Origin: Neisseriales bacterium
Lineage (GTDB): Bacteria > Pseudomonadota > Gammaproteobacteria > Burkholderiales > Q3-R57-64
Length of the DNA: 64,000 bases
Assembly (NCBI GenBank): GCA_016699915.1
Contig: CP064990.1
Span: 644,456-708,455, forward strand
Direction of reading: 5' to 3'
The notes under the pieces are model-generated. The model had not been told where the DNA came from, ran no database searches, and saw only the letters and a list, made by a program, of their open reading frames with translations. Every line of letters begins with the position of its first letter. Position 1 is the first letter of the stretch. Positions 3,602 through 46,269 of the stretch are shown in pieces. Position numbers and translations under genes: made by a program.

Positions 3602-3701
3602 ATCTTTTAAAGAGAATAGTGGTTGTTTTTGCCATGGATACTGACAATCAGTAATTCCTATTCACCCAACCGTAACGGCTAATATTTATTGGGATGTTTG
3701 T

Positions 3702-6872: not shown

Positions 6873-8051
6873 TTATGATAGACCAGCTTCTTGCCGTAAA
6901 ATTAATGATCTATCTATTTTTTCCCACGAAAACTCAGGTTCTTCACGACCAAAATGGCCGTAAACTGCTGTTTTTTTATAAATAGGACGTAATAAATCTA
7001 ACATTTCAATAATTTTTTTAGGTCGTAAGTCAAAATGACGCTTAACAAGCACCTCAATATCCTTAGAAGGAATGGCATTGGTTCCAAATGTATCAATAGC
7101 GATAGAAATTGGCTCGGCAATACCAATAGCATAAGATATTTGAATCTGACATTGCCTAGCAAGCTTGGCCGCAACAATATTTTTTGCAATATAGCGACCC
7201 GCATAGGCCGCTGAGCGATCTACCTTCGTCGGATCCTTGCCTGAAAATGCTCCACCACCATGAGGTGCTGCAGCACCATAAGTATCCACCATGATTTTTC
7301 TTCCTGTTAAACCACAATCTCCATTAGGGCCACCCGTTACAAAACGCCCCGTTGGATTAATAAAATATTTTGTTTGCTTTGTTAACATGTGCGGAGGCAA
7401 TATAGGTTTGATGATTTCCTCAATGACTGCTTCTTTTAAGTCATCATAAGCAATGTCTGGATCGTGCTGTGTGGATAATACAATTGTATCAATACGACTA
7501 GGCTGTCCTGTTTGCTGATCATATACGCAGGTAATCTGGCTTTTTGCATCGGGTCTTAGCCATGGTAAGCAACCATTTTTTCTAAGCTCCGCTTGACGCT
7601 GCATTAAACGATGCGCATAGTAGATTGAAAAAGGCATCAAGGTAGGCGTTTCATCGCAAGCATAACCAAACATGATGCCTTGATCACCCGCGCCTTGATC
7701 TAGATCAATGCCTTCTCCTTCATTAACACCTTGTGCTATATCTGTGGATTGTCCACCGTAACAGGGTATTATCTTGCAAGTCTGACTATCAAACCCTAAC
7801 TCACTGTTATCATAGCCAATTAAACGGATCGTTTCGCGAACAATTGATTCATAATCGATCTTTGCTTTTGTAGTAATCTCACCTGCCAACACGACTAAAT
7901 TTTTACTAACAAGTGTTTCGGCTGCCACACGCGCATAAAGGTCTTGGCTAATTGCATCATCTAAAATAGCATCAGAAATTTGATCGGCTATTTTATCGGG
8001 ATGGCCTTCTGATACCGATTCAGATGTAAAAAAATATTCGCTCATATTCAC
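6873..8051 (-). CDS. metK: S-adenosylmethionine synthase
   Basis: [25 protein letters not shown] and [19 protein letters not shown] motifs. Confidence 0.97.
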
Positions 8052-8096
8052 TTTTCATTTAAATAATGCTTATTTCAAAGATAAATAAAGCTAAAA

Positions 8097-8561
8097 TTAG
8101 CATATACCCGTACTACCAAAACCACCATCAGCTCGGTTACTTGGCAAAAAATCTTCCACAACATTAAAATGCACTTGAACAACAGGAACGACTACCAATT
8201 GTGCAATGCGTTCCATTGGGGATAACGTAAAGGCTTCTTGTCCACGATTCCACACAGAAATAAAAATCTGTCCTTGGTAATCGGAATCAATCAAACCCAC
8301 TAAATTACCCAGCACAATGCCATGTTTATGACCTAACCCAGAGCGAGGCAATATCAGTGCTGCTAGTCTTGCCTCAGCAAGATGGATCGCAATGCCTGTT
8401 GGCACTAAAATCGTTGTATTAGGTAAAAGCACAATTGACTGATCAATCACCGCGTAAAGATCAAGTCCAGCGGAGCCGTCTGTAGCATAGCGTGGTAACT
8501 GATTACTTAGCCGCTTATCAAGAATTTTAAGGTCAACGCCAGTACGGATTCGATCAATCAT
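8097..8561 (-). CDS. dut: dUTP diphosphatase
   Basis: [20 protein letters not shown] and [10 protein letters not shown] motifs. The start is placed at the internal Met ([15 protein letters not shown]) by analogy with E. coli Dut. Confidence 0.9.
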
Positions 8562-8727
8562 ATAGAAATGACATAACGATTGATCATGCAATTTTGCATA
8601 TGAATTAGAGCCATTTTTTTAATTAATCAACACAGTAAAATAAGTTCTTGCTATGCGTTACACAATCCAATAGACAACCATCGTTGAGTCTACTATACTT
8701 CGGCGCCTCTAATCAAGGAAGTGAATT

Positions 8728-10800
8728 GTGCATACCACCATATTACCCGTCCCACCGGAAGCCTCCTATCGCGAACTGACTTGGCGTGGTATGTTGCTCG
8801 CTGCAGTCATGACAGCTATTTTCACTGCTTCAGATGTCTATCTTGGCCTTAAAATTGGCTTAACTTCCTCTTCTGCTATTCCTGCTGCTGTCATTTCGAT
8901 GGCTGTACTAAGTTCATTTGCTGGCTCCAATATTCTCGAAAACAATATGGTTCAAACACAAGCTTCAGCAGCAGGGACACAATCACGTATTATTTTTGCG
9001 TTACCAGCATTAATCATGATTGGCTACTGGAAAAATTTTTCCTTTCTTGAAACAACTCTCATTGCATTGGCTGGTGGCATGTTAGGCGTGGTATTTTCTA
9101 TCCCATTACGACGCGCCCTCGTCGTCAATAGTCAACTACCTTATCCAGAAGGCGTAGCAGCAGCAGAAATTTTAAAAGTAGGTAGCGCTATCCGAGAAAG
9201 TCATACGAAAAATCATACGCAATCCACTGACAAACCACGTGATATTCAGGATATTCTTTCAGGTAGTTTATTTGCCGCTATCATTAACTTATTAACAACA
9301 GGATTACAGCTTTTATCAGGAAGTTGCGCTTATTGGATTCACACAAGTTATGGCGGTATGTTTCAGTTATCAGCTGGTTTTTCATTGGCAATGACTGGCG
9401 CAGGCTACCTCATTGGTGCTACAACAGGTTTATCAATATTCATTGGATTATTGTTGGGTTGGGGCATCATTTTGCCTTATTTGACTGCCACAACACCTGT
9501 TCCAACAAATTTTTCATCAAACCTGCCCGCTTTTGCAATGATGCTTTGGCAAACAAAAGCACGTTTAATTGGTGCGGGTGTCATGACAGTTGGTGCGTTA
9601 TGGACGATTATTGCTCTATTCAAACCATTGATGGATGGATTGCAAACTTCTTTTCGTGCCAAACGAAAAACCGATGCAATCCATAACATTAGAACAGAAC
9701 AAGATCTATCATCTAGTACGATGATTGGCATCATAACAATAGCACTAATCATATTAACTGGGGCGTTTTATTGTTTTGCTGCTGATATATCGACCAACCC
9801 AACAAAATTAGTATTATTAATCAGCTCATCTATTCTTTTTACTTTTGTGATAGGTTTTTTAGTTGCTTCAGTTTGTGGCTATATGGCTGGTGTTTTTGGT
9901 TCATCTGGTAGCCCTATTTCAGGTATTGCTATCATCGCTATTATGGGTGCATCGTTGTTATTACTGGCTGTAGGACATATTACTGGGCTCACAAAAACGG
10001 ATGCAGGAATACATTTTGCGATGGCTTTAGCAATTTTTATCACCAGCGTTATTATTACGATTGCTTGTATTGCCAATGATAATCTTCAGGATCTCAATAC
10101 AGGATATTTAGTCGGCGCCACACCGTGGCGGCAGCAAGTAGCATTACTAATTGGCTGCGCTATTGGTTCACTTGTTATTGCACCGATCATGCAATTAGTT
10201 TATCAAGCTTATGGTTTTATCGGAGCTATGCCAAGACCAAATATGGATCTTTCGCAAGCTTTAATTGCCCCACAAGCCACACTCGTTAGCATCATTGCAA
10301 CAGGTATCTTCAACGGAACAATTGCTTGGAAAATGATTTACATCGGGGTCGGTATGGGCGTTGTCCTACTATTCATTGATCACTTACTAAAAAAATTCAC
10401 CCGTTTTCACTTACCACCTTTAGCTGTCGGTATCGGTTTATACTTACCACCAAGCGTTGAAATGCCACTTGTTATTGGCGCGGTTCTGGGCTGCTTGATT
10501 GATTACATATTACGAAAAAAATTACCTAGCAACGATACACAAAGCGCTATACGCATAAAACAAGTAAATCGACGAGGCACACTACTTGCTTCAGGCCTTA
10601 TTGTAGGGGAAAGCATAGTGGGCGTATTCATGGCTATCATCATTGTTGCCAGTGTTGCGCAAGGCGGATCCGATGCACCATTATCTTTATTGCCCTATTT
10701 AGGAGGTGATACATACCGACCCATTGCAGAGTGGCTAGGGCTAAGCGTTTTTATTATTTCTTGCATTATTTTTGTCAGAAAAATTATTGTAATAAAATAA
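8728..10800 (+). CDS. OPT-family oligopeptide transporter
   Basis: 690-aa polytopic membrane protein with an N-terminal pattern typical of bacterial OPT proteins (REL TWRG..LA....IFTA..VYLGLKIGLT). GTG start. Confidence 0.75.
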   Translation: MHTTILPVPPEASYRELTWRGMLLAAVMTAIFTASDVYLGLKIGLTSSSAIPAAVISMAVLSSFAGSNILENNMVQTQASAAGTQSRIIFALPALIMIGYWKNFSFLETTLIALAGGMLGVVFSIPLRRALVVNSQLPYPEGVAAAEILKVGSAIRESHTKNHTQSTDKPRDIQDILSGSLFAAIINLLTTGLQLLSGSCAYWIHTSYGGMFQLSAGFSLAMTGAGYLIGATTGLSIFIGLLLGWGIILPYLTATTPVPTNFSSNLPAFAMMLWQTKARLIGAGVMTVGALWTIIALFKPLMDGLQTSFRAKRKTDAIHNIRTEQDLSSSTMIGIITIALIILTGAFYCFAADISTNPTKLVLLISSSILFTFVIGFLVASVCGYMAGVFGSSGSPISGIAIIAIMGASLLLLAVGHITGLTKTDAGIHFAMALAIFITSVIITIACIANDNLQDLNTGYLVGATPWRQQVALLIGCAIGSLVIAPIMQLVYQAYGFIGAMPRPNMDLSQALIAPQATLVSIIATGIFNGTIAWKMIYIGVGMGVVLLFIDHLLKKFTRFHLPPLAVGIGLYLPPSVEMPLVIGAVLGCLIDYILRKKLPSNDTQSAIRIKQVNRRGTLLASGLIVGESIVGVFMAIIIVASVAQGGSDAPLSLLPYLGGDTYRPIAEWLGLSVFIISCIIFVRKIIVIK

Positions 10801-10871
10801 ATCTGATTTTAGACCATAGGTATTTTTTTCGTAATCCCTCAATCTAATGAATGCTACTCAACAGCAGCTTA

Positions 10872-12023
10872 TCAACATGGTAAACTCATACAATCGGAAT
10901 GATGTTTTTCGAAAGTACGCATATATCGCAACTCGTCAATTGGTACTTTGATGAGTGCTGCGGCTTTATTTTCATCAATATAGCCCTCGCCCAAAGCACG
11001 AAACACTAATTGCTCAAAAAACTGCGTTGTCTCTACGGGATACGCATCGCCAGGCTCTTGAATATGCCAACCATTGATTTTAAATTGACGTAATTGTCTA
11101 TTAAATGCACTAACAGGCAAAATCTCTAAAGCTTTGGCTCGATATAAAGTCGCCATCATACTGATACCAAATTTTTTCTTAATTAGCATCAGTTCACTTA
11201 ATTCAATATGTTTGCGATAAGTACCTAGTATTTGTTTGGCTGGCTGGCTCGGTAGCAAAAAAGCACCCGCAAAATAGTGGCATGCTAATTCCTCATCCAC
11301 GGCAGGATCCAATCGATTAGCTAATATAAGGTGACCCAATTCATAGGCTAACGTGAAACGCTGGTGGTCACCAGGCCAATTGCGATCAACCACAATAATA
11401 GGCGTTTGGCCAATCCAAGCAGTTAAACCATCAAATTTCTTATAACTTGTTTCGTCCATATGAGTGGTTATCACTCGAATGCCATGGCTTTCTAAGATAT
11501 CAACAAAGTGCATAATATCAACTAAACCCAATGCCCAATATTGGCGAATTTTATAGGTAACTTGCTCAATATCACGCAATGCAGTAATGCGTTTAGGCAA
11601 ACGAAGTGGCAAACTAAAAGGGATAATGGGAACCGATGGAAAGAGGCGCTCTAAATCAATACGTTCTTCAACTTGACTAATAATATCCCATTGAATTGCT
11701 TCTAATCGTTTCTTCGAAAGACGGTAGCGGGTACGATATTTCACTGCTTGCAAAGTAATTTTTTGAGGCAAAAAGAAATAGGTGGGACATACACCCAATG
11801 CATCGGCTAGCTTTGCGACGACTGAAGAAGAAGGATTAACTCCTTCGTCTTCGTAACGTTTGATCGCAGCATGCGTCAAACCAATACGATTACCCAATGC
11901 ACGCAAAGAAAAACCAGCAGACTTTCTAGCACGTCGTAACCGCCACCCTACAACTGCCCCACCCCATTTTTGATCTCTCTCAAAAAGCTCTTGTTGAGAA
12001 ACCCGGTACATTGTATATATCAC
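10872..12023 (-). CDS. XRE-family HTH regulator fused to an ImmA/IrrE-type (COG2856) metallopeptidase-like domain
   Basis: N-terminal HTH (LRRARKSAGFSLRALGNRIGLTHAAIKRYE). The peptidase core reads RFTLAYELGHLIL...FAGAFLLP. The first zinc ligand of HExxH is Tyr here. Confidence 0.75.
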   Translation of the reverse strand: MIYTMYRVSQQELFERDQKWGGAVVGWRLRRARKSAGFSLRALGNRIGLTHAAIKRYEDEGVNPSSSVVAKLADALGVCPTYFFLPQKITLQAVKYRTRYRLSKKRLEAIQWDIISQVEERIDLERLFPSVPIIPFSLPLRLPKRITALRDIEQVTYKIRQYWALGLVDIMHFVDILESHGIRVITTHMDETSYKKFDGLTAWIGQTPIIVVDRNWPGDHQRFTLAYELGHLILANRLDPAVDEELACHYFAGAFLLPSQPAKQILGTYRKHIELSELMLIKKKFGISMMATLYRAKALEILPVSAFNRQLRQFKINGWHIQEPGDAYPVETTQFFEQLVFRALGEGYIDENKAAALIKVPIDELRYMRTFEKHHSDCMSLPC

Positions 12024-30886: not shown

Positions 30887-30962
<76 letters not shown>

Positions 30963-31140
30963 ACCAATCAACATTTCAATTCCTCATTTCCATTGGAGGT
31001 GGTTTTAATTACTGAGTTGCTCGTCTTAGTCAAGAATGATTCCACTCGCTCAAAAAAACAAAAATTGCAAAAAAATCATTCAAAAACAAAATGCTGCTAT
31101 TGGATTCCTGGTAGGATAGATGCGTCAAAAAATTTACCTG

Positions 31141-31416
31141 TTAAACAGCAGAACGTTTTATTTCTTTAATCTGTAAAATTTTCGATAGTTTACCAACAAG
31201 ATGTAGTCGCTTTTGATCTCCGACAGCTAATCCGAGTAACGATTTTGCAATAGGCCTGCTTTCATTTACAATACCATTATCAAGATCATCTTTGGTGTTT
31301 GTTATTTGAATCGTCAAAATATCTTCTGGGTTCGCTAAATCAATGTAATGTATAACGTCGCCAACCTCTACCGTTAGTTCAGTTTTTGTGCTGGTGCTTT
31401 TGTTATCCTTTGTCAA
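31141..31416 (-). CDS. GreA/GreB C-terminal-domain-only protein
   Basis: VEVGDVIHYIDL...ILTIQITN...ESRPIAKSLLGLAVGDQKRLHL...ILQIKEI fits the Gre C-terminal (FKBP-like) domain pattern. The coiled-coil N-domain is absent. Confidence 0.6.
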   Translation of the reverse strand: MTKDNKSTSTKTELTVEVGDVIHYIDLANPEDILTIQITNTKDDLDNGIVNESRPIAKSLLGLAVGDQKRLHLVGKLSKILQIKEIKRSAV

Positions 31417-31458
31417 AATTGTTGATGTGTCAATATACCGATTTTCTACTGTTGAATC

Positions 31459-34400
31459 TTATGTTTGCTCAGAATCTTCAATGGTTTCTTTAAGATCATT
31501 ATTTGATACTATGTCTAGCTCTAGAGTATTAACAACACGCTGTTCGCAATAAAGACTGGGTACTACACCATCAGAGCTGGTAGGATATACATTATTTTCG
31601 CTCAACGCTCCAATAAGGTCTTCAATCATTTCTTCTCTTCGTCTAAACCATGTTGAAGCAAGACACCGCCAAAAAACCCAGCCTGCTCTCTCTAACATTC
31701 TTTGGCGCGCTATATCATCCTCCCATTTTTCTGGGCCGTGATACTGGTCACCATCACATTCAATAGCTAAACGTGCATCATTCTCACCTTCTACAACCAT
31801 ATCAATTCGAAATAATTGACCAATTTGTACCTGGGGAATTACCCTATACCCACGCTCTGTTAGTACATCGTACACTGCTTTTTCGAATTCTGATTCGCAT
31901 AATTCGCGCGTATCCTTTCTACAACTTTCATTGTAGGAAAACGGTGCAGAAAAATGCGCAATTAGACTACGTCGAAACTTATCAGCTGGACTTAGCTGTT
32001 CGATAGAAACAGACCTAACTAAATACATACGATCACGGGCACGCGAAGCTGCTACATTAAATCGTTGAGCATAAGTCTCTCTAGTTAAAGGAGCGCCTAA
32101 TTCGTTGGGCGCAACTACCATCGATAAAAATACAATATCTCGCTCTTTGCCCTGGAAATCACTTGCACCACCATAAGCAATTCGATGCTTGTCCCATACT
32201 TCAGAGCCTAGCTCTTGTATTAACATATCACGAATTCGACAGGCTTGTTGTTTGGCTAGTAAAGATACAATACCAATTGAACGGCTAGACAAGGACTCAT
32301 CGTTAACTATTTTTTTAATTTCTGCCACAATAAATTTTGCTTCTGCGATATTTTCATCTCCTGCTCGATATCCATCTTGGATAAGAACATCAATCAGCGG
32401 TGGATCAAGCCTTTCAGACATTTTTGGTAATCGAATAGGTATAAGTTCATGATTGTAAAATTCACGTTTTGAATACTCAATGATTGGATGAACACATCTA
32501 AAATGTTCCTTGAGCATGACGGTATTATTTGCATAAACAGTTTTAAATAAATCGTATATTGATCTTTCTGGCGACATGACTGATTTATAAATCCCAACTT
32601 GATTACCTAGACATTGATCCATTAAATGCCTAATTTTTTCTTCCAATCCTACCCCTTCTGGAGATACTTGTTTATCATCGCCCACAATTAGAACTTTTTG
32701 AGCGCGCAGTAATACTGGTAAGGCCACTAAATCAGATTGCGAAGCTTCATCTACAATAACAAGATCAAAATCCCCTAAATTAGGTGGCAACGATTCAGAA
32801 ACTCTATCATGTCGCATAATCCAGCAAGGTACAGCCCAATTTGCTTGGGAAGCTGCATCCCGTGCATTTTTGCGATAACGAACTTCACGTTTACCAGTTC
32901 CTTTTCCCATTTTTTGAATAGCAGCAAGATAAGCTTGGAGTGCAGAACGTACCTTTGGCGAAGCATTTTCTTCAATTTTTAACCAAGTTCTTTTTACAAT
33001 GACATCTTGGTAGGTCTTAGCTAATCTAGTTTCGGTATCATGTCTATCTTTGGATAAAGTTTGAAGTTGCTTTTGGCAGTCAATTTCTTCAAGATAAACC
33101 GCTAAACGCTTTAGTTTCCAACTTTATTGCAAATTGTTGGGTAACAAATGGTCAATAGCACCACTCACTGGTTGCTGTAAACGCATTGCATACTCAGGGG
33201 CTCCAGATTGCTTGATAAGTTCGGTGACACGAACCACTACATCCAGCTGAGGGCGTAGTTTCAAAACGCGAGAAAGTTCGGCAGTTAATTCCAACCAAGT
33301 TTCTTGTATCTTGCTATCTGTTACAAGCGGATCACCTAACGTTTGATTTAAAAAAGCACGAATTGCCTCAACAATTAACCCGCTTTTGTTTGTCAAAATT
33401 TTCTGAAATTCTGATTTTTGTGCCCATACATTTGCCAGCCGGCTTTTTGATAAATGATGGTTGAGTACAACAATCAACTCATCAACAATATCTTTATTGC
33501 CAATCGCCAAATCAGAGTTCAACCAGAGCGGAAATAGTTTTTTGGCTTTTAAGGAAATTTTTTGTTTCAATTCAACTTGTTTTCCTATATTTTCAAAAAC
33601 AAGTAAAAACTCATAAGCTTGCTGAGCGCTTTTTGCAGAAACAGCAACCCTTGGCAAACCAACTTCCGGTGCAATAACATTCCAACGAATAGTAAGCTCT
33701 TTTAAGTCTTTCTGAAATTTAATATAGCTGGCAACATGTTTCCATTCATCTTCATCGCGCGGATCATGACCGAGGATCCTAATATCCTTAATTGCTTTTT
33801 TCTCTGCGGATTTACCAAGCAATCCGGAAAGACCAAATGGATATTTGCCTTCAGATAGTCTTTTTATCGCTTCCAGTAATTCTGGTTGCATTTCATCCGG
33901 AACAGATACTGGTTTTTTGATAAAGCGCTCGCGTACTCCTGGGATTCGCTTGAATTTTTCTCCAAGTTCATATAGATTTTTTACAAAATCTCGCTTTGAA
34001 CGGTCTTCTATGTTTTGCGTAACTAATAAGAGCCATTTATAATCAGCCGCTTTTAAAGTTTCGCGTATTTTCTGCAATTTTTTTATATCTTCACTTAAAG
34101 CCCGAACAGCTTCAAAAGTTTTTTGAGTGGTATCCATAAGATTTGGCATACCATCAGCTTCGGCTTCTTTTTTTAATTCCTCCAACCTTGAAATATCTTG
34201 GTGAATTTGTAAAATTTCTTCCGCTTTTGGTAATTCAATCATTTGTGGTAATGATGATTTTACATATGCAATATCATGACCAAGTTTCCTACGAACATCC
34301 TTCAATGCCTTGATATCTTCGTTGTTGAAAAGAGGATCGAATTGAGAAGAGATAGTTATGGTATCTTCAATCCATTCATAATTTCCTTTATTCTCAATTA

Positions 34401-36066
34401 ATTCTAAGGTAGCGACATAAGGATCAATCTCAGCTTCATTGATAGCAATTTTTCCAAAAATCTTTTTTGCGAGCACTGAAATATCCCAATCAATTTTTGC
34501 GAGCTTGCTGTGTAAAGCATCAATATTTTCTTCCAAATGATTAATTTCTTTTGCAGTGGTACTGCGATCTACACTTTGAATGGCAGATGAGATTTTTTGT
34601 ATAGAATATTCAAATTGCTTTTGTCCATCTTGATCATTAGTTAACAATGGTATGGCTAGGGGTTTAATCTCATCAGGCAATTGTTGATGCAAAACACTTA
34701 AGGCTGGATCTTTCATGGATGTAACTAATATGCGTTTACCATTGGCAAGAAAATGGCAAATAATATTTGCGATAGTATGGGTTTTTCCAGTTCCAGGAGG
34801 TCCTTGGACAACAACTCCACTATGAGACTCAAGACGCTGGATAATTTTAACTTGCTCACCATTAAAGGGCTTAGGAAAATAAAAGTCTTTCGAATTATGC
34901 TCAAGATTCATTCCATCACGGTAAACAGTAGAAAAACCTCTAAATTCTGCCAGCTTAATCTCCGGATTTTCAGTATCTGGCTCAGTAATGATTGCTAATA
35001 CAGCTGGTGGAAATGCTTCTTGTTCTTCAACAGCTTTGATCATGCGATCAAGATCTTGTAAATAAGCACTATGAGTTCTCGGCCTAGCAAATAGTATCCA
35101 AGTATCGGTTACTTTTAATCGATCATCTGCCTTCGGAACAGCACGATCACTCGGTTGAGTTTGGTCTAGCCAATAAATACCATGGGCATCTAAATTAGTT
35201 GCAGCATTTCTCAAAAGTGGCTCATATGTACTATGATCAAATGGTGAAATAACAACTTGAAGTTCATCGAAAAATTCTTTTGCGGCTTTTTCAAGACCAG
35301 TTGTTCCGTAATTTTTTTGAGAAACATACCAGTCTAATTCGACTCTTGGCTCGATATTGCTTCTTGGGCGAATCTCAATAGCAGCTGTTTTTTGATTAAG
35401 AGTAAGCTCGACTAATTGCCCAATGATCGGATAGCGAACGGTAGTTGCATTTGTTTTCCAAACTCCAACACCTATGCCCCATACAAGCTCAGGTTGCGCT
35501 TCAACAATTTCGCCATCAAGCTGTTGTTTTAATGTGTAAAGTTCGCTATATAACTTAATAGTATGAAGACGTTTCTTTTCCTCAAGAGACCAGGGTACCC
35601 ACTGAAGCGCAACGTATTCATCGAAAAGCTTCTGAACCTTCATTGATTCATTATAGTTTTCGATATTGATAAGTGCATCTGGATCAACAAATGGTCCTTT
35701 GCTTTCGCTTTCCTCTAGAGCTTGCTTTGGGAAATGCGTACCTGTTTTTATTAAAGAAGCACCACTTACCGTCGCGAGAAGTGTTGGTTCATTTTGCGGA
35801 CCGTGCGTAAAACTAACCCATGGGCGAAGCCATATATTTGTAATCTCTGGTGGAGAAGTTTCGTGCAATCTATCAACGGACAACCAAATTTCATCATCAT
35901 CTTGCTGAGAGATATTAAAGTGTATCCCAATCGCTCCGCTTAAATTCTCCTCATAAAGCAAAAAATTGTTATGTGCAGATATATTTGCCACTGGGTTTCC
36001 GCGAAGACGAGTTGATTGAGAGCAAAACTGCAATAATTCAATCAACCTTTGCTTTTGCATGTTCAC
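31459..36066 (-). pseudogene. SF1 (Upf1/DNA2-like) helicase fused to a C-terminal DUF559/Vsr-like endonuclease, interrupted by a single in-frame TAA
   Basis: This is one continuous frame of 1536 codons with an internal TAA at 33124-33126. Walker A (VVQGPPGTGKTH) lies in the 980-aa part. The 483-aa part carries DEASQ, VGDDKQVSP, FQGKERDIVFLS, NVAASRARDRMYLV and the nuclease fold (RIDMVVEG...AIECDGDQYH). The 71 codons between the two track ORFs are sense codons in the same frame. Confidence 0.8.
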
Positions 36067-36186
36067 GGTGATTACCTTGATTAAGCCAGTAAAGGTGGAA
36101 ATTTTGAGCTAGTAAGTGACAAAAAGAACTCTAAAAGCACAAAATCTGTCTGTATGGTAACAAGCTTTTGAAAATAGAAACCAAAG

Positions 36187-36266
36187 TATGAAAATAGCGA
36201 TGCTTGTGGTTTTTTGAAAGCGGCCATATTCCTGCATTGAGCGAAACGGGTTCTGCTTGCAAAAAA
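36187..36266 (+). repeat. Inverted repeat, left copy (IR-B), in the intergenic region between the TolQ-like gene and the helicase
   Basis: 72 of 80 positions are identical to the reverse complement of 37676-37755, from my position-by-position comparison. Confidence 0.85.
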
Positions 36267-36280
36267 GGCTGAATTTTTTA

Positions 36281-37441
36281 TTACTCCAACCATTTTTTAA
36301 ACCACTGCCATTTCTTAGGAACAAAACGAACACCTTCTAAGCTTTTAGTTGCTTGCGCAAAATTATCTAAAGCCACTTTGGAACTACTTAATACATTAGC
36401 CAATGATCCAATTTCTCTTTGGAGAGTGAATAAACCATCTGCACTTAACTTCATATTGTTCTTCATGACATCTAGATGATTATTTGCTGTTTTAAACCCA
36501 TCTCCAAATGAAGAAAACTGGGTTAATAAATTTCCTGTGGCTCCCGTAATATTTTCAAAGGAAGCAACAAAAGATTTTTTGGTTTCGGTAAAACTAACAG
36601 CCACTTCCTTGAGCTCATTAAGAGACTTCAAAAAACTTGCAATTGATTGATCAACACCTTTAGCATTTAAGTTAGTCACCATCTTTTGGTTGGCCTGACA
36701 CAATTCATTCCCAACTTCATTGAAAGAACTATTGGCTTTTTTGGTCATTTCCTGTAGATCAGCAAAGCATGTTTTTAACGCTTCCGCATAATTGTTAGAA
36801 TGTCTTGACATAGACTCCTGTGATTTGTTCATCTCCTGCACTAAACCATTTACATCCTTTTTAAGTTGGCTGGTAAGGCCACTGATTTCATTACCTAATT
36901 GACCGTTTAATGCACTAATTTCTCTTCGGAAAACGCTTAATTGATCATTTAGTGCTCGGTAAATCTTTTTAGGGTCAGCGCCATTCGTGTCAAACGTCGA
37001 CTGAGCAGCTAAGAGAATTCTAGCCCATAAGCCAAACATCGTTGCCGTTAACCCCACCCCAAACTGGAATATAGCATGCTGAATCAATTGAGACTTATTT
37101 AAGTCATTAGAAGAATACAAAGCTTCAAAAATAAAAATGCTTGCTAAAGCACAAATCGTTAGAATAAAACCAAGATAATAGGCTAAATCGGCAGCATCAG
37201 GATCATCGACTAGACCTTGTGATTTAATAGAAAAGAAATAACCAAAGATAGTTACTGTATTGATAAAAAATATAGCAATCCCAAGCTTAATATGGCTAGA
37301 TTCACTTACACCAGATTTAAAATATATAATCGAGGTAATGAGCAAAACAATTCCACAACCAAGAAAACGAGAGAATAAATCGCTGGCTTTTTTCTCAATC
37401 TCACTTGCTGTATTTTTAGTTAACTTAACATCCAAATTCAT
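36281..37441 (-). CDS. TolQ/ExbB/MotA-like 4-TM channel domain with a ~240-aa C-terminal helical (coiled-coil-like) tail
   Basis: There are 4 TM segments in aa 20-145. The last two read YYLGFILTICALASIF and GLTATMFGLWARILL, compared with TolQ/ExbB G-L-L-G-T-V-x-G-I and L-I-A-T-A-I-G-L-F-A-A-I. The rest is heptad-like and rich in Q, N, S, L and K. It has its own SD (AGAGG). Confidence 0.5.
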   Translation of the reverse strand: MNLDVKLTKNTASEIEKKASDLFSRFLGCGIVLLITSIIYFKSGVSESSHIKLGIAIFFINTVTIFGYFFSIKSQGLVDDPDAADLAYYLGFILTICALASIFIFEALYSSNDLNKSQLIQHAIFQFGVGLTATMFGLWARILLAAQSTFDTNGADPKKIYRALNDQLSVFRREISALNGQLGNEISGLTSQLKKDVNGLVQEMNKSQESMSRHSNNYAEALKTCFADLQEMTKKANSSFNEVGNELCQANQKMVTNLNAKGVDQSIASFLKSLNELKEVAVSFTETKKSFVASFENITGATGNLLTQFSSFGDGFKTANNHLDVMKNNMKLSADGLFTLQREIGSLANVLSSSKVALDNFAQATKSLEGVRFVPKKWQWFKKWLE

Positions 37442-37471
37442 ATAAAACCTCTATAATTAGGCACATCAATA

Positions 37472-38376
37472 TTATTTAGAACGATCGGCAATTTCACTGG
37501 GGTCACAAGTAAACAGAATGCTATGCTCCTGAGACTGAAATAAAGCTCTCCAAAACGCAACAACGCCTTCCTTTTGCGGTTTTGATAAAATTTGACAAAT
37601 AGCAACATTGCTACGCTCTTTTTGCTTGGTATTTTTTAAATATCCAAGTAAGTTTTTGCCTAATATATCGGTCCATTTTTTGCAAGCGGAACCCGTTTCG
37701 CTAAATGTAGGGATGTTGCCGCTTTCAAAAAACCACAAGTATCGCTGTTTTCATATAAATCCGAGAAAACGATCAGTTTACTACCAGCCTTCCAGTAAGT
37801 TGCATTCGATGTAACCGTTACTAAAGCCTCCACAATATGAGAACGACCCGCATCCCACCTTTGTAAGATATCATCAACCGCCTTTTTAACATGACCCAAA
37901 GCAACATCCTTCACTCTCTTTTCTTCAGTCGCAGAAAGATCGGTCAAAAGCCAAGTTGTATTGGGAGGAAAGGAGCAATAGCTTGCCACCGGCGTCATCT
38001 CTGCAGGTTTTTGGTCAGAAAGTAAATAAATACTCGTTTTTTCAATTTTCTTACCCCCTGTAATCCATGACCAAAATCCTTGTTCAACAAAAGCTGTTTC
38101 CTTAATCAGCCGATATAAATCCTCTATTTTGCCTTCGGGAATTTTGTCAGTTATGTCAACAAAAATAATATTTCTTTTGCCAATATAACTCTCATTTGCT
38201 GGGCAAACACAACGAGGTTCCAATTCTCCTTTTTTGCACTCAACAAATGTTGGAGGTTTAAAAAAATAGGCTACGCCAAACAAACATAATGCGAATACAA
38301 TAGCAAAAAGCATCATACGCTTAGCTAAAACGCTTTCACCTGAGGTTTTTTGAGTAAGCGCCCTGTAATTTTTCAT
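37472..38376 (-). pseudogene. Membrane-anchored vWA-like protein, split by a frameshift at a T6 run (238-aa and 88-aa track ORFs)
   Basis: N-terminal TM followed by vWA-like strands (NIIFVDITDK, TSIYLLSD, SKLIVFSDLYEN). The reading frame moves by -1 at GGT TTT TTG (37734-37726). The downstream frame stays open for 84 more codons, which is unlikely by chance in AT-rich DNA. Confidence 0.55.
37676..37755 (-). repeat. Inverted repeat, right copy (IR-A), inside the 3' part of the vWA-like gene
   Basis: Partner of 36187-36266. It includes the T6 frameshift site. Confidence 0.85.
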
Positions 38377-38377
38377 T

Positions 38378-39841
38378 TCAATTCAGAATGTACTCATCTT
38401 CTGCATTTGCTTGCGCTACTTTTTTTGAGCCATGTTTTTTATCCTCGGGCATTTTGGGGAAGTTAAGTAAATCAGTTATGTCAGATTTTTGCCACCAAAC
38501 TTGCAAACTTTTCTTCTGGGAAAGAATTGATTTTTGCAATGTTTGAGCTTGTTGATGAATACCTTCCTTATTTTTTATAAAGTCTTCTAACTGTGTTTTA
38601 TAACTTTCCAACTGCGTATTCTCAGATAGGCTTTGTATTTTTTGTGGGTAGTCATCAGTACCATTGGGCTGATGTGCACTGATGGTAATTTTAAAAATCT
38701 CTTGCAGTTGTTGATAAGCAAAATCAACCTGTTTTCGATCTTCTTCCCAAGCTTTTATTTCTCTTGCAATTTCTGGCAGATTCCCATTAAAGTCATCATA
38801 GGTTGACAAAATTCGCATGCCTAAATTATCTAAATCCAGATCCGCGCGTTGCTTAAGATCGGTACAATACACCCCACGAGCATTTTGCGCTTCCGCTAAT
38901 CGCTTCGACCATTTATCAAACATTCTGGCGTAATGTCCATAACCGGGATAGGGATCATCTAATTGATAGCCTTTTTGAAAAGCTGCAATACCCATACTAA
39001 TACCGATTAAGAACAACACCATGCTTTCTAACCAAAATGCATCATTAAATCCTTCGTTCGCACTAATATAGCGATACCTATAAAAGGCAATAATGCCATT
39101 AATGATTAAAATTGCTAAGATGGAAAAAATAAGGTACCACGCGCCACGCTTGGCTTTTCTTTTATTAATATGGTTTTTAATCCGATATGCAAAACCAAAA
39201 ACTGTGTTCGATACAATATTCAGTGCAGCTATACCAAAAGCTACAAATAAAAAAGTTAAAAAATTGATTCCCTGCCTTAAGAAAAAAGCGTTGAATAACG
39301 CTTCAGCAATACCAAAAAACACTAACCAGTATAACGCATTCTTTCGATCAGAGTAAATTGCAGAAACGCTAATACCATTTGCCCCCTTAAATACCTCTAA
39401 ATCCTTTTTAGTTTCTTGATATTTCTTAACAATGCGATCTACTTCAGCTTGATTCTGCGCCACCCACGATCTGATTTTACCTTCAAGGTCTTCTGGTGCG
39501 GCATGAGACAGCTCACTATATAAACCAGACTTTAACAATGCGGATAAATGCTGCAAATCACCAAAATACTGCTTGATAGCGCCAACATGAAATTTGGCGC
39601 ACTCTGTATCCACCATAATACTATCTGTGCGTAAAGTAGCTTCATAGGGATGAATTTGGTTAGGTTTTAGATCATCACCACTTTGAATAGCTTGATAGGC
39701 TTTTATTCTTGCCTCATCTTGCTTTTCTTGCAAGCTTAACCAAGCCAACATTGCTTCAAAACCAATTAACTTGCGCTTTTTTAGACCAAAAAAATGAGCA
39801 ACCGGCTCCAAAAGTTCATCAATTTCTCCAAATGCCAACAA
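38378..39841 (-). CDS. Uncharacterised membrane protein: helical N-domain, 4 central TM segments, coiled-coil C-domain
   Basis: TM segments lie at about aa 168-300, followed by the LDDPYPGYG motif and Q/K/E-rich heptads. The stop is 1 nt from the start of the vWA-like gene, which suggests translational coupling. The TTG start is uncertain. Confidence 0.6.
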   Translation of the reverse strand: MLAFGEIDELLEPVAHFFGLKKRKLIGFEAMLAWLSLQEKQDEARIKAYQAIQSGDDLKPNQIHPYEATLRTDSIMVDTECAKFHVGAIKQYFGDLQHLSALLKSGLYSELSHAAPEDLEGKIRSWVAQNQAEVDRIVKKYQETKKDLEVFKGANGISVSAIYSDRKNALYWLVFFGIAEALFNAFFLRQGINFLTFLFVAFGIAALNIVSNTVFGFAYRIKNHINKRKAKRGAWYLIFSILAILIINGIIAFYRYRYISANEGFNDAFWLESMVLFLIGISMGIAAFQKGYQLDDPYPGYGHYARMFDKWSKRLAEAQNARGVYCTDLKQRADLDLDNLGMRILSTYDDFNGNLPEIAREIKAWEEDRKQVDFAYQQLQEIFKITISAHQPNGTDDYPQKIQSLSENTQLESYKTQLEDFIKNKEGIHQQAQTLQKSILSQKKSLQVWWQKSDITDLLNFPKMPEDKKHGSKKVAQANAEDEYILN

Positions 39842-39924
39842 TTTTATGTTTACTATTTTAACATTATTTTGTTAGGATGTGCACCTTTAAAAATTAAAGC
39901 TAATCAAAATGACTTTATGTAATT

Positions 39925-40525
39925 TTGAGCATGAATAGACATAAACGAGAAGTTTCAAGGGAAAGGCTCATCGGTATATCCTTTATTGATATTTTGATTC
40001 AGGCTATATTTGTTTTGTTTTTGGCGCTTGGGGTTGGGTATATGGATCCGATAGAGCGCGAAGAGGCAGAAGAGGCAAAACGAAAGTTACATGATATTTG
40101 TCACAGATTTAATAAGGATTCAACCAAACCCTGTTACGATTATCTAATACAAATAGCAACAAAAGAGGCAAAAGGGCAGAAAGGATCACTACATTTATGT
40201 ATAGCACCAAAATCCTTTAACAAATCAATTCCCTCTGTGTTTTTTTAAGGTACATTCTCCTACCCAAATTAGGTTTTTACGTTTCAGTCCTGAATATAAA
40301 ACTTATTTGTTAAAAAATGGACAAATCCAAAAACTCAAGAAAGCTCAGGCTATCCGAGCGGGTTTATATCCCATTGACTCTATTGAGTCAACCTTCGGAT
40401 TTATTAGAGAAGAGAAGTGCTATCACAAGGTAGAGAGAGGATGGGAAGGTAGATGGGATCCCAGCCAAGTAAGTAAAGGCTTCCAAACTTTATTAAAATT
40501 GCAAGAATCTTCTTCTAAAAAATAA
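39925..40525 (+). pseudogene. ExbD/TolR/MotB-like single-TM protein, split by a frameshift in a T7 run (107-aa and 72-aa track ORFs)
   Basis: A basic N-terminus is followed by a TM reading GISFIDILIQAIFVLFLAL, compared with ExbD/TolR (N/I)-V-x-P-(F/L)-(I/L)-D-V-(M/L)-L-V-L-L-I-I-F-M with a membrane-embedded Asp. Removing one T from 40240-40246 fuses the frames into a 199-aa product. Confidence 0.5.
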
Positions 40526-40539
40526 ACTCACCTTGAGCC

Positions 40540-42003
40540 TTACGATCTAATTCGGTACATACCAACCCAATAGATTGTTGACGAAATCAATAAACCAACA
40601 AACCATGCATAAGTGTAAATGTTGTTAAAAATGCTTGGAATATTTGTGAAACTTGCTGGAAAAGCTGCCCCTAAAAATCCAGGAATATTGGGTAGCACAC
40701 CCAATATAAAAGCTAGTAACGCTATCTTGTTCCATCCATTCCCATAGTGGTAAATGCCTTTGAGTTGATAAAGCGCTTCAACATTCAGTTTTGTGCGGCG
40801 AATTAAAAAATAATCCACAATCAAAATTCCGGTAATAGGTCCTAATAAGGAAGAGTAGCCGATTAACCACGTAAAAATATAGCCATCTGTTGTCTCAATC
40901 ACTTTCCAAGGCATCATTAAAATAGCTAAAGCTGCGGTTATATAGCCGCCCACCTTGTAAGAAATCTTCTGTGGATACAATGCTGAAAAGTCGTAACTAG
41001 GTCCCACCATATTAGCTGCCAAATTCACGCTGATAGTATCAACCAATAACACAATTAAAGCCACCAATACCGCAATGCCCGTCATACGACCAGCAAGCGT
41101 AATCGGATCCCATAATGCTTCGCCATAAATCACAATCGTTGCCGAAGTCACTAAAACCGCAAGTAAAGACAACATGGCCATGGGAATTGGCAAACCAACC
41201 ATTTGGCCAATCACTTGTTCGCGCTGATTTTTGGTAAATCGCGTAAAGTCAGCAATACTTAAGGCTAATGCCGCCCAAAACCCGACCATCGCCGTTAAAG
41301 AAGGCCAAAAAACTTGCCAAAACTGCCCAGCTTTAGCGCCTCCCGCTTCAAACTGAGAAGGTTGATCCAAAATAGGGCCTAGTCCTCCGGCTTGATGGTA
41401 TACCCATCCCAATAACACAAAACAGATCACAATCTTAATGGGAGCAGTATAAGTTTCAAGTTTGCGTATCGAATCAATCCCATGCACAATAAACCACAAT
41501 TGCAAGAACCAAAAGGCCATAAAACAGACCAATTGGGCAAAATTGATGCCCAAAAATGGCAAAATAGCACCCCCTATGGGTACGCCGAGAATCAAACTAC
41601 CAAGCGTGTAAATCATTTGACCACCAATCCACGTATCAATGCCATACCACCCACAAGCAACCAGGGCACGCAAAAAGGCGGGTAATTTAGCGCCCAAAGT
41701 ACCAAAAGATGAGCGCATCAATACTGCGCAAGGTATCCCATATTTGACACCCGCATGGCCAATTAAGAGCATCGGGATTAACACAATGACATTGCCTAAG
41801 AAGATCGTTGCAACAGCCTGCTTCCATGACATCCCATTCATGATCAGGCTGCCTGATAACATGTAAGCGGTGATACACATCACCATCCCAATCCATAAGG
41901 CTGCAAAATGATACCAGGCCCAAGTACGCGCTTGCACGGAAGTTGGCATCAAATCAGGGTTCGATAAATGAGCATCCATCGTTATATTTTCAAGTTGATC
42001 CAA
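40540..42003 (-). CDS. NCS1-family nucleobase:cation symporter (cytosine/uracil/allantoin permease type)
   Basis: 487 aa, 12 TM segments and an NCS1-like N-terminal pattern (DLMPTS...RTWAWYHFAALWIGM). Confidence 0.8.
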   Translation of the reverse strand: MDQLENITMDAHLSNPDLMPTSVQARTWAWYHFAALWIGMVMCITAYMLSGSLIMNGMSWKQAVATIFLGNVIVLIPMLLIGHAGVKYGIPCAVLMRSSFGTLGAKLPAFLRALVACGWYGIDTWIGGQMIYTLGSLILGVPIGGAILPFLGINFAQLVCFMAFWFLQLWFIVHGIDSIRKLETYTAPIKIVICFVLLGWVYHQAGGLGPILDQPSQFEAGGAKAGQFWQVFWPSLTAMVGFWAALALSIADFTRFTKNQREQVIGQMVGLPIPMAMLSLLAVLVTSATIVIYGEALWDPITLAGRMTGIAVLVALIVLLVDTISVNLAANMVGPSYDFSALYPQKISYKVGGYITAALAILMMPWKVIETTDGYIFTWLIGYSSLLGPITGILIVDYFLIRRTKLNVEALYQLKGIYHYGNGWNKIALLAFILGVLPNIPGFLGAAFPASFTNIPSIFNNIYTYAWFVGLLISSTIYWVGMYRIRS

Positions 42004-44841: not shown

Positions 44842-46269
44842 ATGAAAAAATATTGTTGGCTTGCTGCATTAGTCATCGCGAGTAGTTTGCCAGTTTTATC
44901 TTGTGCCGACGATGCTCCGCTTCTCCCAAAGTCTCACTCTGAATCACTGCCTTCTTTTTTTGATTTTTGGGATTACGATATCACCGTTGAAGCTGGCATT
45001 GAAAAAACACTCTCCAAAGACGAATCTTTCAACCTATCTCACCCAATACTGATAGGTAATTTTGACCTAGAAGTAAAGGGAGTTTTTCCGGTTGCGCCAA
45101 CCACTTCAAAGACGAGCTTATTATGGGGAACCCATATGCGCTTGTCGCCACAGCACTTAGCCATTAAAGATGTTTACGCGGGTGTAGGTTTTCAGTTTGG
45201 GCAGTTAAAGTATGGTTTATTGACAACACTACCTGAGAACCCTCTTGCTGATTACTGGAAGGGAGAAGGCGCTAATAATATCGCTATTTATAATAATTTT
45301 GACACACTACTAAAAAATGCTTATCGTTTTCAATCCACTCCGTTAAACGGCTTTTCTTTTCATCTCATTCGAGGAACCAGCGGTTATATCACGGGTGCAA
45401 CCAACAAACCCGATATTACCTTTACCATTTCTGACATTCCTGTCACAGGTTATGGATTCCAGTTTCAAGATAAAGGTTTAACGATGGGCTACACTACTTT
45501 TACAAAAGAAGGCGATGCACAAACAACTGTCGCACCGCGAGGAACCTATATTTTGACAACACCCTCAACGCCTTCCCCTGGTGGATTTCCAGATATGCCA
45601 GGATTTGGTAGAAATGAGCGATCTACATCACCATCCACCTCAACTCAGTCTTCTGCTGATACATCGAATAAAGATATTTATATACAACGGCAGATTAAAA
45701 TTGGCTATGACCAACACCCGCTATGGTGGCAATTAGGCTACCAACAAAAACAAAGTCGGGAAGGCTGGGGAGATGTCTCATCGGTCATGCCCGTTACACC
45801 GAGTCAAAAAGCAATCGACGTCATTAAAGAAGATATTGGTTTGCTCAATGAAATACTCCAAAATCCGGACATTAAATTCACTTGGCCTTGGTTTAAAACA
45901 CATGAAATTTTAGCAGGGATAGGTTATACCTTTGGCCAATTCCGACCTAAGGCCATGGTGGTTTTTGGTACCATTGACAAGAGCAGTCGTCGTAATATCT
46001 GTATTGATGTATCGCAATGCGATGACTCGATCTGTCAAGTCGCAGAACAACGTTATGGTCAAATCATTGAACGAGAAGTTCCCATGTCCGACTATCGACA
46101 ATATATCTTAGGCATAGATTATCTTGTCAATACGCACACCACTTTGGGTGTCTCTTGTGGAAAAATAAATTGGCTTAACCATGACTATGGGAGTGATGAA
46201 ACCCTCCAAGAACTGGGTGCTTGGCAAAATAAACAAAGTTTTGGGTTACATATTAGTCATCGGTTCTAA
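44842..46269 (+). CDS. Outer-membrane beta-barrel protein (putative porin)
   Basis: Signal peptide (MKKYCWLAALVIASSLPVLSCADD), alternating beta-strand patterns and a C-terminal ...GLHISHRF ending in Phe. Contains a low-complexity S/T/P insert. Confidence 0.6.
   Translation: MKKYCWLAALVIASSLPVLSCADDAPLLPKSHSESLPSFFDFWDYDITVEAGIEKTLSKDESFNLSHPILIGNFDLEVKGVFPVAPTTSKTSLLWGTHMRLSPQHLAIKDVYAGVGFQFGQLKYGLLTTLPENPLADYWKGEGANNIAIYNNFDTLLKNAYRFQSTPLNGFSFHLIRGTSGYITGATNKPDITFTISDIPVTGYGFQFQDKGLTMGYTTFTKEGDAQTTVAPRGTYILTTPSTPSPGGFPDMPGFGRNERSTSPSTSTQSSADTSNKDIYIQRQIKIGYDQHPLWWQLGYQQKQSREGWGDVSSVMPVTPSQKAIDVIKEDIGLLNEILQNPDIKFTWPWFKTHEILAGIGYTFGQFRPKAMVVFGTIDKSSRRNICIDVSQCDDSICQVAEQRYGQIIEREVPMSDYRQYILGIDYLVNTHTTLGVSCGKINWLNHDYGSDETLQELGAWQNKQSFGLHISHRF

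Follow-up and report, generated by a model that had tools for sequence, protein, structure and literature searches.

Two copies of one sequence lie in inverted orientation on either side of a complete gene in contig CP064990.1 of a Neisseriales bacterium. This raises the question of whether the bracketed segment can be switched, whether the two copies act by pairing in the transcript, or whether they are the trace of a past mutation. The window analysed here is the whole 64,000-nt stretch of this contig, and coordinates refer to it unless stated otherwise.

Structure of the inverted repeat

The repeat search placed two arms of 80 nt each at 36187-36266 and 37676-37755, with 90 % complementarity and a spacing of 1409 nt:

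36187..36266, + strand: left arm, derived inverted copy; non-coding, 72/80 identical, T6 at 36210-36215, internal stop if read as protein
36267..37675, - strand: enclosed segment of 1409 nt with the complete 386-aa gene, a 30-nt spacer and the last ~68 true-frame codons of the vWA-fold gene (37472-37675)
37676..37755, - strand: right arm, source copy; native coding sequence that spans codons ~208-234 of the 300-aa vWA-fold gene, T6 at 37727-37732

Comparison of the 64-kb window with itself by blastn recovered the same pair (72/80, gap-free, E 1.4e-22) and thereby reproduced the original prediction of an 80-bp inverted repeat with eight mismatches and no gaps. The same search returned no second repeat at E<1e-3 in 64 kb, and the 80-mer is present in two copies only. 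Mismatches fall at positions 9, 16, 39, 41, 44, 48, 53 and 68, the longest perfect block between the arms is 22 nt, and the similarity breaks off sharply at either end of the 80 nt. The left copy does lie in a 214-nt spacer (36067-36280), the 1409 bp do enclose the whole 386-aa gene (36281-37441), and the right copy is vWA-like coding DNA including the T6 site, all as had been proposed.

The genome is a long-read MAG and two frameshifts at the locus are changes in homopolymer length, which would fit an assembly or sequencing artefact. However, a Logan contig assembled independently, L001 (SRR11674035), agrees with the window throughout 33982-39029 (100 % identity) and spans both arms with unchanged orientation. 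A second strain from an unrelated run (L005, DRR274965) matches 39876-37231 at 99.66 % identity; its right arm and T6 run are identical and its nine SNPs all fall outside them. Since the arms differ from each other at eight sites, neither a collapsed nor a chimeric duplicate accounts for them. The agreement of L001 and L005 shows that the repeat is real, and we regard an artefact as practically negligible. The repeat is known from one lineage, represented by these two strains.

The right arm belongs to a frameshifted vWA-fold gene

The right arm is part of the following gene:

37472..38376, - strand: frameshifted 300-aa gene (membrane anchor and vWA fold), called as 238- and 88-aa ORFs

The T run at 37727-37732 has six residues, where the homologues require seven, and adding one T to the gene restores a 301-aa protein. 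All 29 homologue clusters are 298-306 aa long, have an unbroken frame, are collinear with the 300-aa gene and read SDLYENSxxCGxFE...CKxW in a single frame. The right arm itself aligns codon for codon and without gaps with the orthologues from two homologous loci, L002 and L004. The right arm is the ancestral copy.

A Pfam search with the 300-aa protein gave no match. The AF2 model of the orthologue P0005 (pLDDT 81) matches TFIIH p44, Sec24, ANTXR2 and integrin I domains with E values of 1e-4 to 1e-3, and residues D73, T75 and D76 (P0005 numbering; consensus FVDATD) are invariant. The label "vWA-like" given to this gene in the original prediction is thus justified at the level of the fold, although not by Pfam. 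The T6 frameshift is fixed in both strains. The 85 codons past it show 7/37 departures from the consensus, compared with 7/37 and 5/37 in sister lineages. Phage, plasmid and viral collections contained no relatives of the protein.

The left arm is a lineage-specific copy at a synteny break

Six homologous loci (L002, L004 and L006-L009) keep the three-gene order first gene, 300-aa gene, third gene. The retention of the repeat at such loci, a point raised by the original prediction, was not observed: an inverted repeat of at least 30 nt is absent from the homologous place in all six loci examined (L002, L004, L006, L007, L008 and L009). Two of the differences between the arms could be resolved with an outgroup (ACT/GCT and TTT/TTG), and both times the derived base is on the left arm. 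The left arm is a derived, lineage-specific copy.

Its surroundings contain the following features:

36267..36293, - strand: retained start of DUF6804, with its ATG (36293-36291) inside the end of the 386-aa gene; left arm directly after
36095..36184, - strand: probable degraded DUF6804 remnant (residues 11-45, LVSIFKSL-LPY...), interrupted by gaps and a stop codon; weak support
31459..36066, - strand: helicase-nuclease gene, SF1 helicase with an MTES_1575 REase domain; PADLOC PDC-S37/Hhe-like
30887..30962, + strand: tRNA-Ala(CGC); L002 synteny resumes exactly at its 3′ end, far edge of the inserted segment

The left arm begins 14 nt past the stop of the 386-aa gene and cuts DUF6804 after nine codons. 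The product starts here with MVGVIKNSA, and with MVQVIS or MVQIHQ in relatives. When DUF6804 of L004 was used as a tblastn query, the probable remnant was the top match against the whole window at E 0.099 and reached 5.7e-4 within the syntenic spacer; neither a three-sequence HMM nor Pfam recovered it. We found no target-site duplication or direct repeat at the flanks of the arm and, on reading the sequence, no convincing microhomology at either junction. Later divergence may have obscured the original junctions.

Window positions 40456-36288 match L002, the closest relative, at its positions 6973-11145, and positions 30962-26001 match L002 11733-16703. The 5.3 kb between these two blocks (30963-36288) takes the place of DUF6804 and its spacer. 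The left arm begins 22 nt inside this interval and so sits at the synteny break. The helicase gene belongs to the same segment, which is missing from the syntenic L002, and is split by an in-frame TAA (33124-33126); an exact look-up of its N-terminal ORF returned no record. We also considered whether the island ends on its far side in an att direct repeat derived from the tRNA and rejected this, as no more than 10 nt of the tRNA 3′ end recurs.

Other genes of the operon and decay of the locus

Three further genes complete the picture of the locus:

36281..37441, - strand: third gene, 386 aa; four predicted TM helices, then a long helical tail
38378..39841, - strand: first gene, 487 aa; membrane protein, no family assigned, intact
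39925..40525, + strand: divergent gene of the 202-aa type, in which T6->T7 at 40240-40246 leaves two ORFs of 107 and 72 aa

The operon combines a membrane protein, a membrane-anchored vWA-fold protein and a 4-TM/coiled-coil protein, and is rare and without annotation. Homologues of the third gene were present in every locus fetched, and distant members of the operon adjoin resolvase and restriction genes. Searches of genome and metagenome contig collections for the family of the first gene and for a degenerate pattern of the arms gave no further relatives. The surrounding operon may be a more interesting object than the repeat.

The 386-aa protein had been described as TolQ/ExbB-like, and this label found no support. 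It has no sequence match to MotA, TolQ or ExbB in Pfam, NCBIfam or PDB, and its model (pLDDT 59) gave no fold match at E<0.02; the fold search is uninformative because the confidence of the model is low. PADLOC gave only ZorA matches, which are weak and cover the helical tail.

The vWA-fold gene (T7->T6) is not the only broken one: the helicase gene carries an in-frame TAA, and T6->T7 splits the divergent gene. The housekeeping neighbours are intact, with single-frame matches for each of ten syntenic genes. The locus is decaying.

Differences between the arms

The eight mismatches (four C/T, two A/G, one A/C and one T/G) comprise six transitions and two transversions. All six transitions share one strand polarity (two-sided p about 0.03). 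In the operon-sense RNA the arms form 72 Watson-Crick pairs, no G-U pairs and eight mismatches; in + strand RNA or single-stranded DNA they would pair at 78/80. Replication skew was rejected as the cause of the one-sided transitions, the GC skew of the + strand being negative throughout. Short-patch conversion from the 22-nt perfect block was also considered, but a block of this length is expected by chance (P 0.56) and is no evidence either way.

By codon position, five of the eight differences fall at position 3 and none at position 2 (p 0.04, n = 8). This avoidance of position 2 hints at some coding-type divergence. The presence of T6 in both arms suggests that the copying postdates the frameshift. 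Yet the arms have diverged by 10 % and the codons downstream of the frameshift are undecayed, which makes the timing a puzzle. Its solution needs independent slippage, conversion from arm to arm, a burst of changes at the insertion or a bypass of the frameshift.

Origin of the repeat

We consider the repeat to be probably a mutational scar left by a templated inverted insertion, by template switch or as a repair patch. Template switching during replication makes short inverted copies (PMC8794818, PMC7954356, PMC7202029). About 80 nt of the vWA-fold coding sequence would have been copied in inverted orientation in an ancestor of this Neisseriales lineage and deposited 1.4 kb away, in the first DUF6804 codons overlapping the end of the 386-aa gene. 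The most likely route would be replication or break repair, with the nascent strand moving onto the opposite template strand and then back. A larger rearrangement has its junction at this site: the 5.3-kb helicase-nuclease island abutting tRNA-Ala took the place of the remaining DUF6804 sequence and its spacer; the insertion of the arm and the gain of the island may have been one complex event or two. The non-coding copy would then have drifted to 8/80 differences, the whole locus decaying afterwards. By-products would be a potential RNA duplex over a long range and a pair of arms that could serve, weakly, for inversion by homologous recombination or for conversion between the arms. We infer that the repeat is without dedicated function, and we infer likewise the template-switch mechanism and the number and order of the events.

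Features of a mobile element are lacking, with two copies in the window, no target-site duplication and no transposase in 64 kb, and no Rfam family matches the repeat. A MITE or REP element was rejected, the right arm being conserved coding DNA that is gap-free against its homologues and the copies numbering two. The original prediction had also thought of a scar, one of an inversion or insertion that placed the 386-aa gene here. The scar itself stands as the probable reading, but the event did not place the gene, as the gene order is kept in six repeat-free loci. The rearrangement affected the sequence immediately downstream of it, with DUF6804 lost and the helicase island gained. Several observations speak against the scar. 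As to the mechanism, no microhomology is visible, and 1.4 kb and 80 nt exceed typical short-range template switches. As to the reading in general, there are the transitions of one polarity, the puzzle of the T6 timing, the codon-position bias, the weak DUF6804 remnant and the sampling of one lineage.

Some of these difficulties would disappear if the left arm had been imported, as a fragment of a vWA-fold allele of about 90 % identity from a related strain or species that arrived by illegitimate recombination with or beside the island. The eight differences would then be older than the insertion, and the divergence of 10 % would no longer conflict with the undecayed frameshifted gene. The coding-like character of the differences (five of eight at position 3, none at position 2; six transitions to two transversions) and the position of the arm at the edge of DNA missing from the syntenic L002 agree with such an origin. 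However, the left arm agrees with the window's own gene, rather than with L002 or L004, in the lineage-specific T6 and in the residues D, F, S, G and SETGSA that are likewise specific to the lineage, the probable DUF6804 remnant lies between the arm and the island, no other genome was found with this family at about 90 % identity, and the statistics are based on eight sites. We regard the import as unlikely. Another proposal concerns the RNA. The arms could pair across the 386-aa cistron and form a site of RNase III processing or decay, or a distant stimulator of -1 frameshifting at U_UUU_UUG that restores the vWA-fold protein. The duplex predicted for the isolated arms is strong (dG -104.5 kcal/mol), and there is no terminator-like site between the genes. 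The T6 run lies in the codons ggT TTT TTG, frame 0 of the 238-aa ORF, and, on reading the sequence, forms an X_XXY_YYZ heptamer at which a -1 shift gives the correct downstream frame. In addition, the 85 downstream codons show no relaxed constraint and the frameshift is fixed in two strains. Against this, all six transition differences give A-C and none G-U in the sense RNA, an internal loop (positions 39-44) lies where the stimulator should start, and the slippery site is inside the duplex. Furthermore, all 29 homologue clusters are single-frame and without the repeat, three other genes of the locus are broken too, and both arms lie in translated or coupled regions. The duplex envisaged by the original prediction is thus physically possible as predicted (about -104 kcal/mol), but it bears no sign of selection, with 8/8 mismatches non-pairing and the homologues without the repeat. 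An RNA element of this kind appears very improbable to us. We would put slightly lower still the fuller version, in which the inverted copy was kept for its action on the operon transcript, with the vWA-fold gene alive through -1 slippage and the left arm tuning frameshifting or RNase III cleavage. If true, this version would describe a long-range element for frameshifting or processing in a bacterium that had its origin in a template switch. In a variant, the 78/80 hairpin of the + strand, as RNA or single-stranded DNA, would explain the single transition polarity.

The original prediction had further suggested that the segment 36267-37675 may be invertible, as an ON/OFF switch for the 386-aa gene or for the exchange of vWA-fold 3′ ends. 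Such an inversion would depend on RecA or on a recombinase encoded elsewhere. A complete gene with its ribosome-binding site is indeed bracketed by the inverted repeat, and the length of the arms is in principle adequate for homologous recombination. However, the remark that no recombinase is nearby extends to the whole window: Pfam identified only housekeeping, operon and island proteins among the ORFs of at least 170 aa, and no recombinase, integrase or transposase. The MAG, L001 and L005 all have one orientation and the contigs pass through the arms unbroken; a search for alternative orientations with a degenerate arm pattern against genome and metagenome contig collections gave no match, and the 90 % cluster of the 238-aa product holds no recombinant variant ORF. 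At 10 % divergence the perfect block is at most 22 nt, promoter-like sites are no commoner than in shuffles, and the repeat is missing from six homologous loci. Moreover, conceptual translation predicts that inversion would lead to a stop after 2-14 vWA-fold codons and not to an alternative domain, the reading becoming ...CKKG* in the true frame or ...AKKAEFFITPTIF* in the T6 frame. The proposal finds no support in the search for a recombinase, in the conservation of the repeat or in the inverted product, three assemblies show a single orientation, and we find a switch hardly credible.

The scar in itself matters little. It offers a clean natural case from a bacterial chromosome: the source and the inverted copy templated on it both survive, and the copy lies at an island junction next to a tRNA gene. 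It also illustrates that a long inverted repeat bracketing a gene is by itself no evidence of a switch. If the repeat later moved the T6 allele into the coding arm, such scars could inactivate genes through conversion from arm to arm.

Comparison with known systems

As in the Hin/Gin invertases, the fim switch and the shufflons, inverted repeats surround a segment holding a complete gene. In contrast to them, the 64 kb encode no recombinase, the arms are imperfect and far longer than recombinase sites usually are, a single orientation is seen, conservation of the repeat is absent, and inversion would yield no alternative product. With the TR/VR pairs of DGRs the locus shares a protein gene whose 3′ part contains a segment with a nearby non-coding counterpart of about 90 % identity. 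However, our locus has no reverse transcriptase, the copies are inverted, mismatches extend beyond the adenines of one copy, and the region that would be variable is not a C-terminal ligand-binding fold. A DGR was accordingly rejected, as the mismatch spectrum is mixed and the 64 kb have no RT domain.

Programmed -1 ribosomal frameshifting with long-distance stimulatory pairing occurs in luteoviruses. The locus shares with it an in-frame X_XXY_YYZ heptamer (U_UUU_UUG) and a complement far downstream in the same transcript, but here the slippery site is within the duplex, the spacing is non-canonical, there is no covariation and the homologues lack the frameshift. In rRNA operons, long-range RNase III stems flank the 16S and 23S rRNA, and they too are complementary segments around a complete gene in one transcript. 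The arms described here are instead located in mRNA that is translated; conservation of the repeat is lacking, and the sense strand displays no compensatory or G-U changes.

Compared with template-switch mutations, which arise by strand switching in replication or repair, include quasipalindrome-type events and short-range switches, and are typically smaller and nearer to their template, the copy described here is long (80 nt), lies 1.4 kb from its template, shows no visible microhomology, has diverged by 10 % and coincides with a 5.3-kb insertion. Like them, it is a de novo inverted copy of nearby sequence in one lineage, with a possible hairpin (PMC8794818, PMC7954356, PMC7202029), and it arose likewise without mobile-element machinery or target-site duplication.

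Structure of the inverted repeat

The repeat search returned two arms of 80 nt each, 36187-36266 on the plus strand and 37676-37755 on the minus strand, which are 90% complementary and separated by 1409 nt. In self-blastn of the 64-kb window the arms matched at 72/80 positions with no gaps (E 1.4e-22), and no further repeats were found at E<1e-3. Both searches thus reproduced the gapless ~80-bp inverted repeat of the original prediction, which was also correct on the 214-nt spacer, the 1409 nt enclosed and the T6 run within the right arm. The mismatches fall at arm positions 9, 16, 39, 41, 44, 48, 53 and 68, leaving a longest perfect block of 22 nt. Pairwise alignment with 100-nt flanks showed that the similarity breaks off sharply at either end of the 80 nt.

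Features around the repeat, in minus-strand order
38378-39841, minus: 487-aa membrane protein, first gene
37472-38376, minus: split gene (ORFs of 238 and 88 aa), the vWA-fold gene
36281-37441, minus: 386-aa gene
Between the 386-aa gene and the helicase: 214-nt spacer containing the left arm
31459-36066, minus: SF1 helicase with MTES_1575 nuclease domain (PADLOC PDC-S37/Hhe-like), one in-frame TAA
30887-30962, plus: tRNA-Ala(CGC), next to rpsU, dnaG and rpoD

The 386-aa protein is deposited at NCBI as hypothetical protein IPK86_03220 of the MAG 'Neisseriales bacterium' (912-kb contig). The Logan contig L001 (SRR11674035) contains both arms and matches window 33982-39029 at 100% identity. The unrelated run DRR274965 yielded contig L005, with 99.66% identity over 39876-37231 and all nine SNPs outside the right arm. 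As these two further assemblies confirm the feature, an assembly artefact was rejected. The T6 run of the vWA-fold gene is present in L005 too and is therefore real, as L005 represents a second strain that was sequenced in a separate project. This second strain of the same organism differs at 9/2646 positions over window 37231-39876; one difference changes Gly to Val in the vWA-fold gene.

Right arm and the enclosed gene

Homologues of the split gene form 29 clusters, every one of them single-frame and 298-306 aa long. With one more T in the T6 run (37727-37732), the gene would encode a 301-aa protein collinear with these clusters. Translation of the right arm gives YENSDTCGF(F)ESGNIPTFSETGSACKK, and the orthologues from the homologous loci L002 and L004 align with the arm codon for codon, without gaps. 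Judging from these alignments, the right arm is native coding DNA. The 85 codons past the frameshift have diverged no more than in sister lineages and show no relaxation of constraint. The frameshift is possibly bypassed, because the minus-strand GGT TTT TTG (37727-37733) holds an in-frame X_XXY_YYZ heptamer, U_UUU_UUG, at which a -1 slip would bring back the conserved downstream frame.

The AlphaFold model (pLDDT 81) of P0005, an orthologue of the 300-aa protein, matches vWA domains of TFIIH p44, Sec24, ANTXR2 and integrin I domains (E 1e-4 to 1e-3), so the earlier label 'vWA-like' stands at the level of the predicted fold. The label 'TolQ-like' for the 386-aa protein is unsupported. Four TM helices and a long helical tail are predicted for this protein, which had no match to MotA/TolQ/ExbB in Pfam, NCBIfam, PDB-sequence or fold searches. 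Its sole hits were weak PADLOC ZorA matches, on the tail.

Homologous loci

Homologous loci were recovered from the closest relatives (L002/L003, L006, L004) and from more remote relatives (L007, L008/L009). The gene order, with the 300-aa gene between the first and third genes, is the same in every one of them. The proposed check for the repeat at homologous loci was run and found it absent throughout, with no inverted repeat of at least 30 nt around the third gene in any locus recovered.

These loci define a rare, conserved, unannotated operon (window 36281-40525, L002 6910-11433, L004 3046-7565, also L006-L009). The first gene encodes 459-487 aa, a membrane protein in the window copy. The second protein (~300 aa) is membrane-anchored with a vWA fold, and the third has 375-449 aa, with four TM helices and a helical tail predicted for the window copy. 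The fourth gene is DUF6804 in the three closest loci and encodes a ~200-aa protein in distant loci. The neighbours of two distant loci (serine resolvase, HIRAN protein or type I restriction gene) hint at a mobile or defence-island setting; the 300-aa protein had no match in phage, plasmid and viral collections. A cytosine/purine/allantoin-type permease gene (40540-42003) separates MatE from the operon in the window. It is missing at that place in L002, and L004 has permease-related sequence on the opposite strand, downstream of its operon; these differing positions suggest more local rearrangement around the operon. A single 475-aa ORF (44842-46269, no Pfam match) corresponds to two L002 genes of 205 and 243 aa (3032-4448), either fused in the window or split in L002.

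Left arm and the break in synteny

Synteny between L002 and the window holds on either flank (window 40456-36288 with L002 6973-11145, window 30962-26001 with L002 11733-16703). Between the flanks, the window has a 5.3-kb island (30963-36288) that carries a 91-aa ORF as well as the left arm and the helicase-nuclease gene, and that takes the place of 0.6 kb of DUF6804 and spacer in L002. Its far edge is exactly the tRNA-Ala 3' end, and neither an integrase nor an att-like direct repeat was found for it. The 91-aa ORF (31141-31416, minus), at the tRNA-proximal end, has weak similarity to the GreA C-terminal domain (NCBIfam E 1e-4, well short of the curated cut-off).

A DUF6804 gene of 94-97 aa comes after the third gene in L002, L004 and L006, and its start overlaps the stop codon of that third gene. 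The window retains this start (ATG at 36293, MVGVIKNSA) and passes directly from codon 9 into the left arm. Past the arm, 36184-36095 gives a gapped, stop-interrupted match to residues 11-45 of L004 DUF6804, the best hit window-wide (E 0.099; E 5.7e-4 within the syntenic spacer). Since Pfam and a small HMM did not confirm it, we consider it a probable DUF6804 remnant. At two outgroup-informative differences (ACT vs GCT; TTT vs TTG) the right arm has the ancestral codon and the left arm the derived one. By this sequence comparison, the left arm is the derived copy and lies at a rearrangement junction.

Decay of the locus

Four defects mark the operon and island when compared with L002.

Defects relative to L002
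1: T7 to T6, vWA-fold gene
2: T6 to T7 at 40240-40246, divergent 202-aa-type gene now ORFs of 107 and 72 aa
3: loss of DUF6804
4: nonsense codon, helicase

The homopolymer change at 40240-40246 runs opposite to that of the vWA-fold gene, and the helicase-nuclease gene (about 1535 aa) is broken by the single TAA at 33124-33126. By contrast, single-frame matches were obtained for each of YajC, Hda, UPRT, MatE, S21, DnaG, RpoD, polysaccharide synthase, DUF218 and RpoZ, and the remaining window ORFs scanned have complete housekeeping domains. The operon and island locus is, as these lesions indicate, decaying.

Function and origin of the repeat

An invertible switch had been suggested. However, no window ORF of at least 170 aa encodes a recombinase (serine or tyrosine), an integrase or a transposase, the three assemblies agree on a single orientation, with contigs continuing through the arms, and no recombinant variant shares the 90% protein cluster of the 238-aa product. 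The inverted state would end the vWA-fold gene after 2-14 codons and so provide no alternative C-terminus. For the suggested long-range RNA duplex, strong pairing is predicted for the isolated arms (dG -104.5 kcal/mol). Against it, operon-sense RNA has 72 Watson-Crick, 0 G-U and 8 mismatched pairs over the 80 positions, no Rfam family matched, and the repeat is unconserved. We leave a small residual chance for an RNA or frameshifting role.

The repeat is real and ordinary in kind: a scar of inverted duplication, specific to this lineage, in an accessory locus undergoing decay. To be explained is an 80-nt inverted copy, with its source 1.4 kb away, at a junction of deletion and insertion. A DGR was rejected on the mixed mismatch spectrum and lack of an RT, and a MITE was excluded with the right arm being native coding DNA. 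As the main rival, a fragment of a diverged allele may have been imported together with foreign DNA, but the left arm carries the lineage's own residues and the T6 run.

Both arms have T6 although they differ by 10% and divergence in the 85 codons past the frameshift does not exceed that of sister lineages. Independent slippage in each, arm-to-arm conversion moving T6 into the gene, a burst of changes upon insertion, or bypass of the frameshift at the slippery heptamer are all possible. The six transitions share one polarity (right-arm C or A, left-arm T or G; two-sided p about 0.03), so pairing in plus-strand RNA or ssDNA would reach 78/80, six of the pairs being G-U or G-T (dG -129), whereas eight positions of the operon-sense RNA are true mismatches. 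The one-sided transitions are not accounted for by GC skew. Arm differences avoid codon position 2 (p 0.04). With n=8 sites, neither T6 sharing nor transition polarity nor codon-position bias is decisive.

We infer that the left arm most likely arose by templated insertion, in which a nascent strand would switch to the opposite template strand in replication or break repair. An inverted copy placed at the junction, showing no element features and confined to one lineage, fits this mechanism; no microhomology was seen at the junctions. Short inverted copies and new hairpins are a documented outcome of template-strand switching (PMC8794818, PMC7954356, PMC7202029), although typical short-range template switches are smaller than the event in the window.
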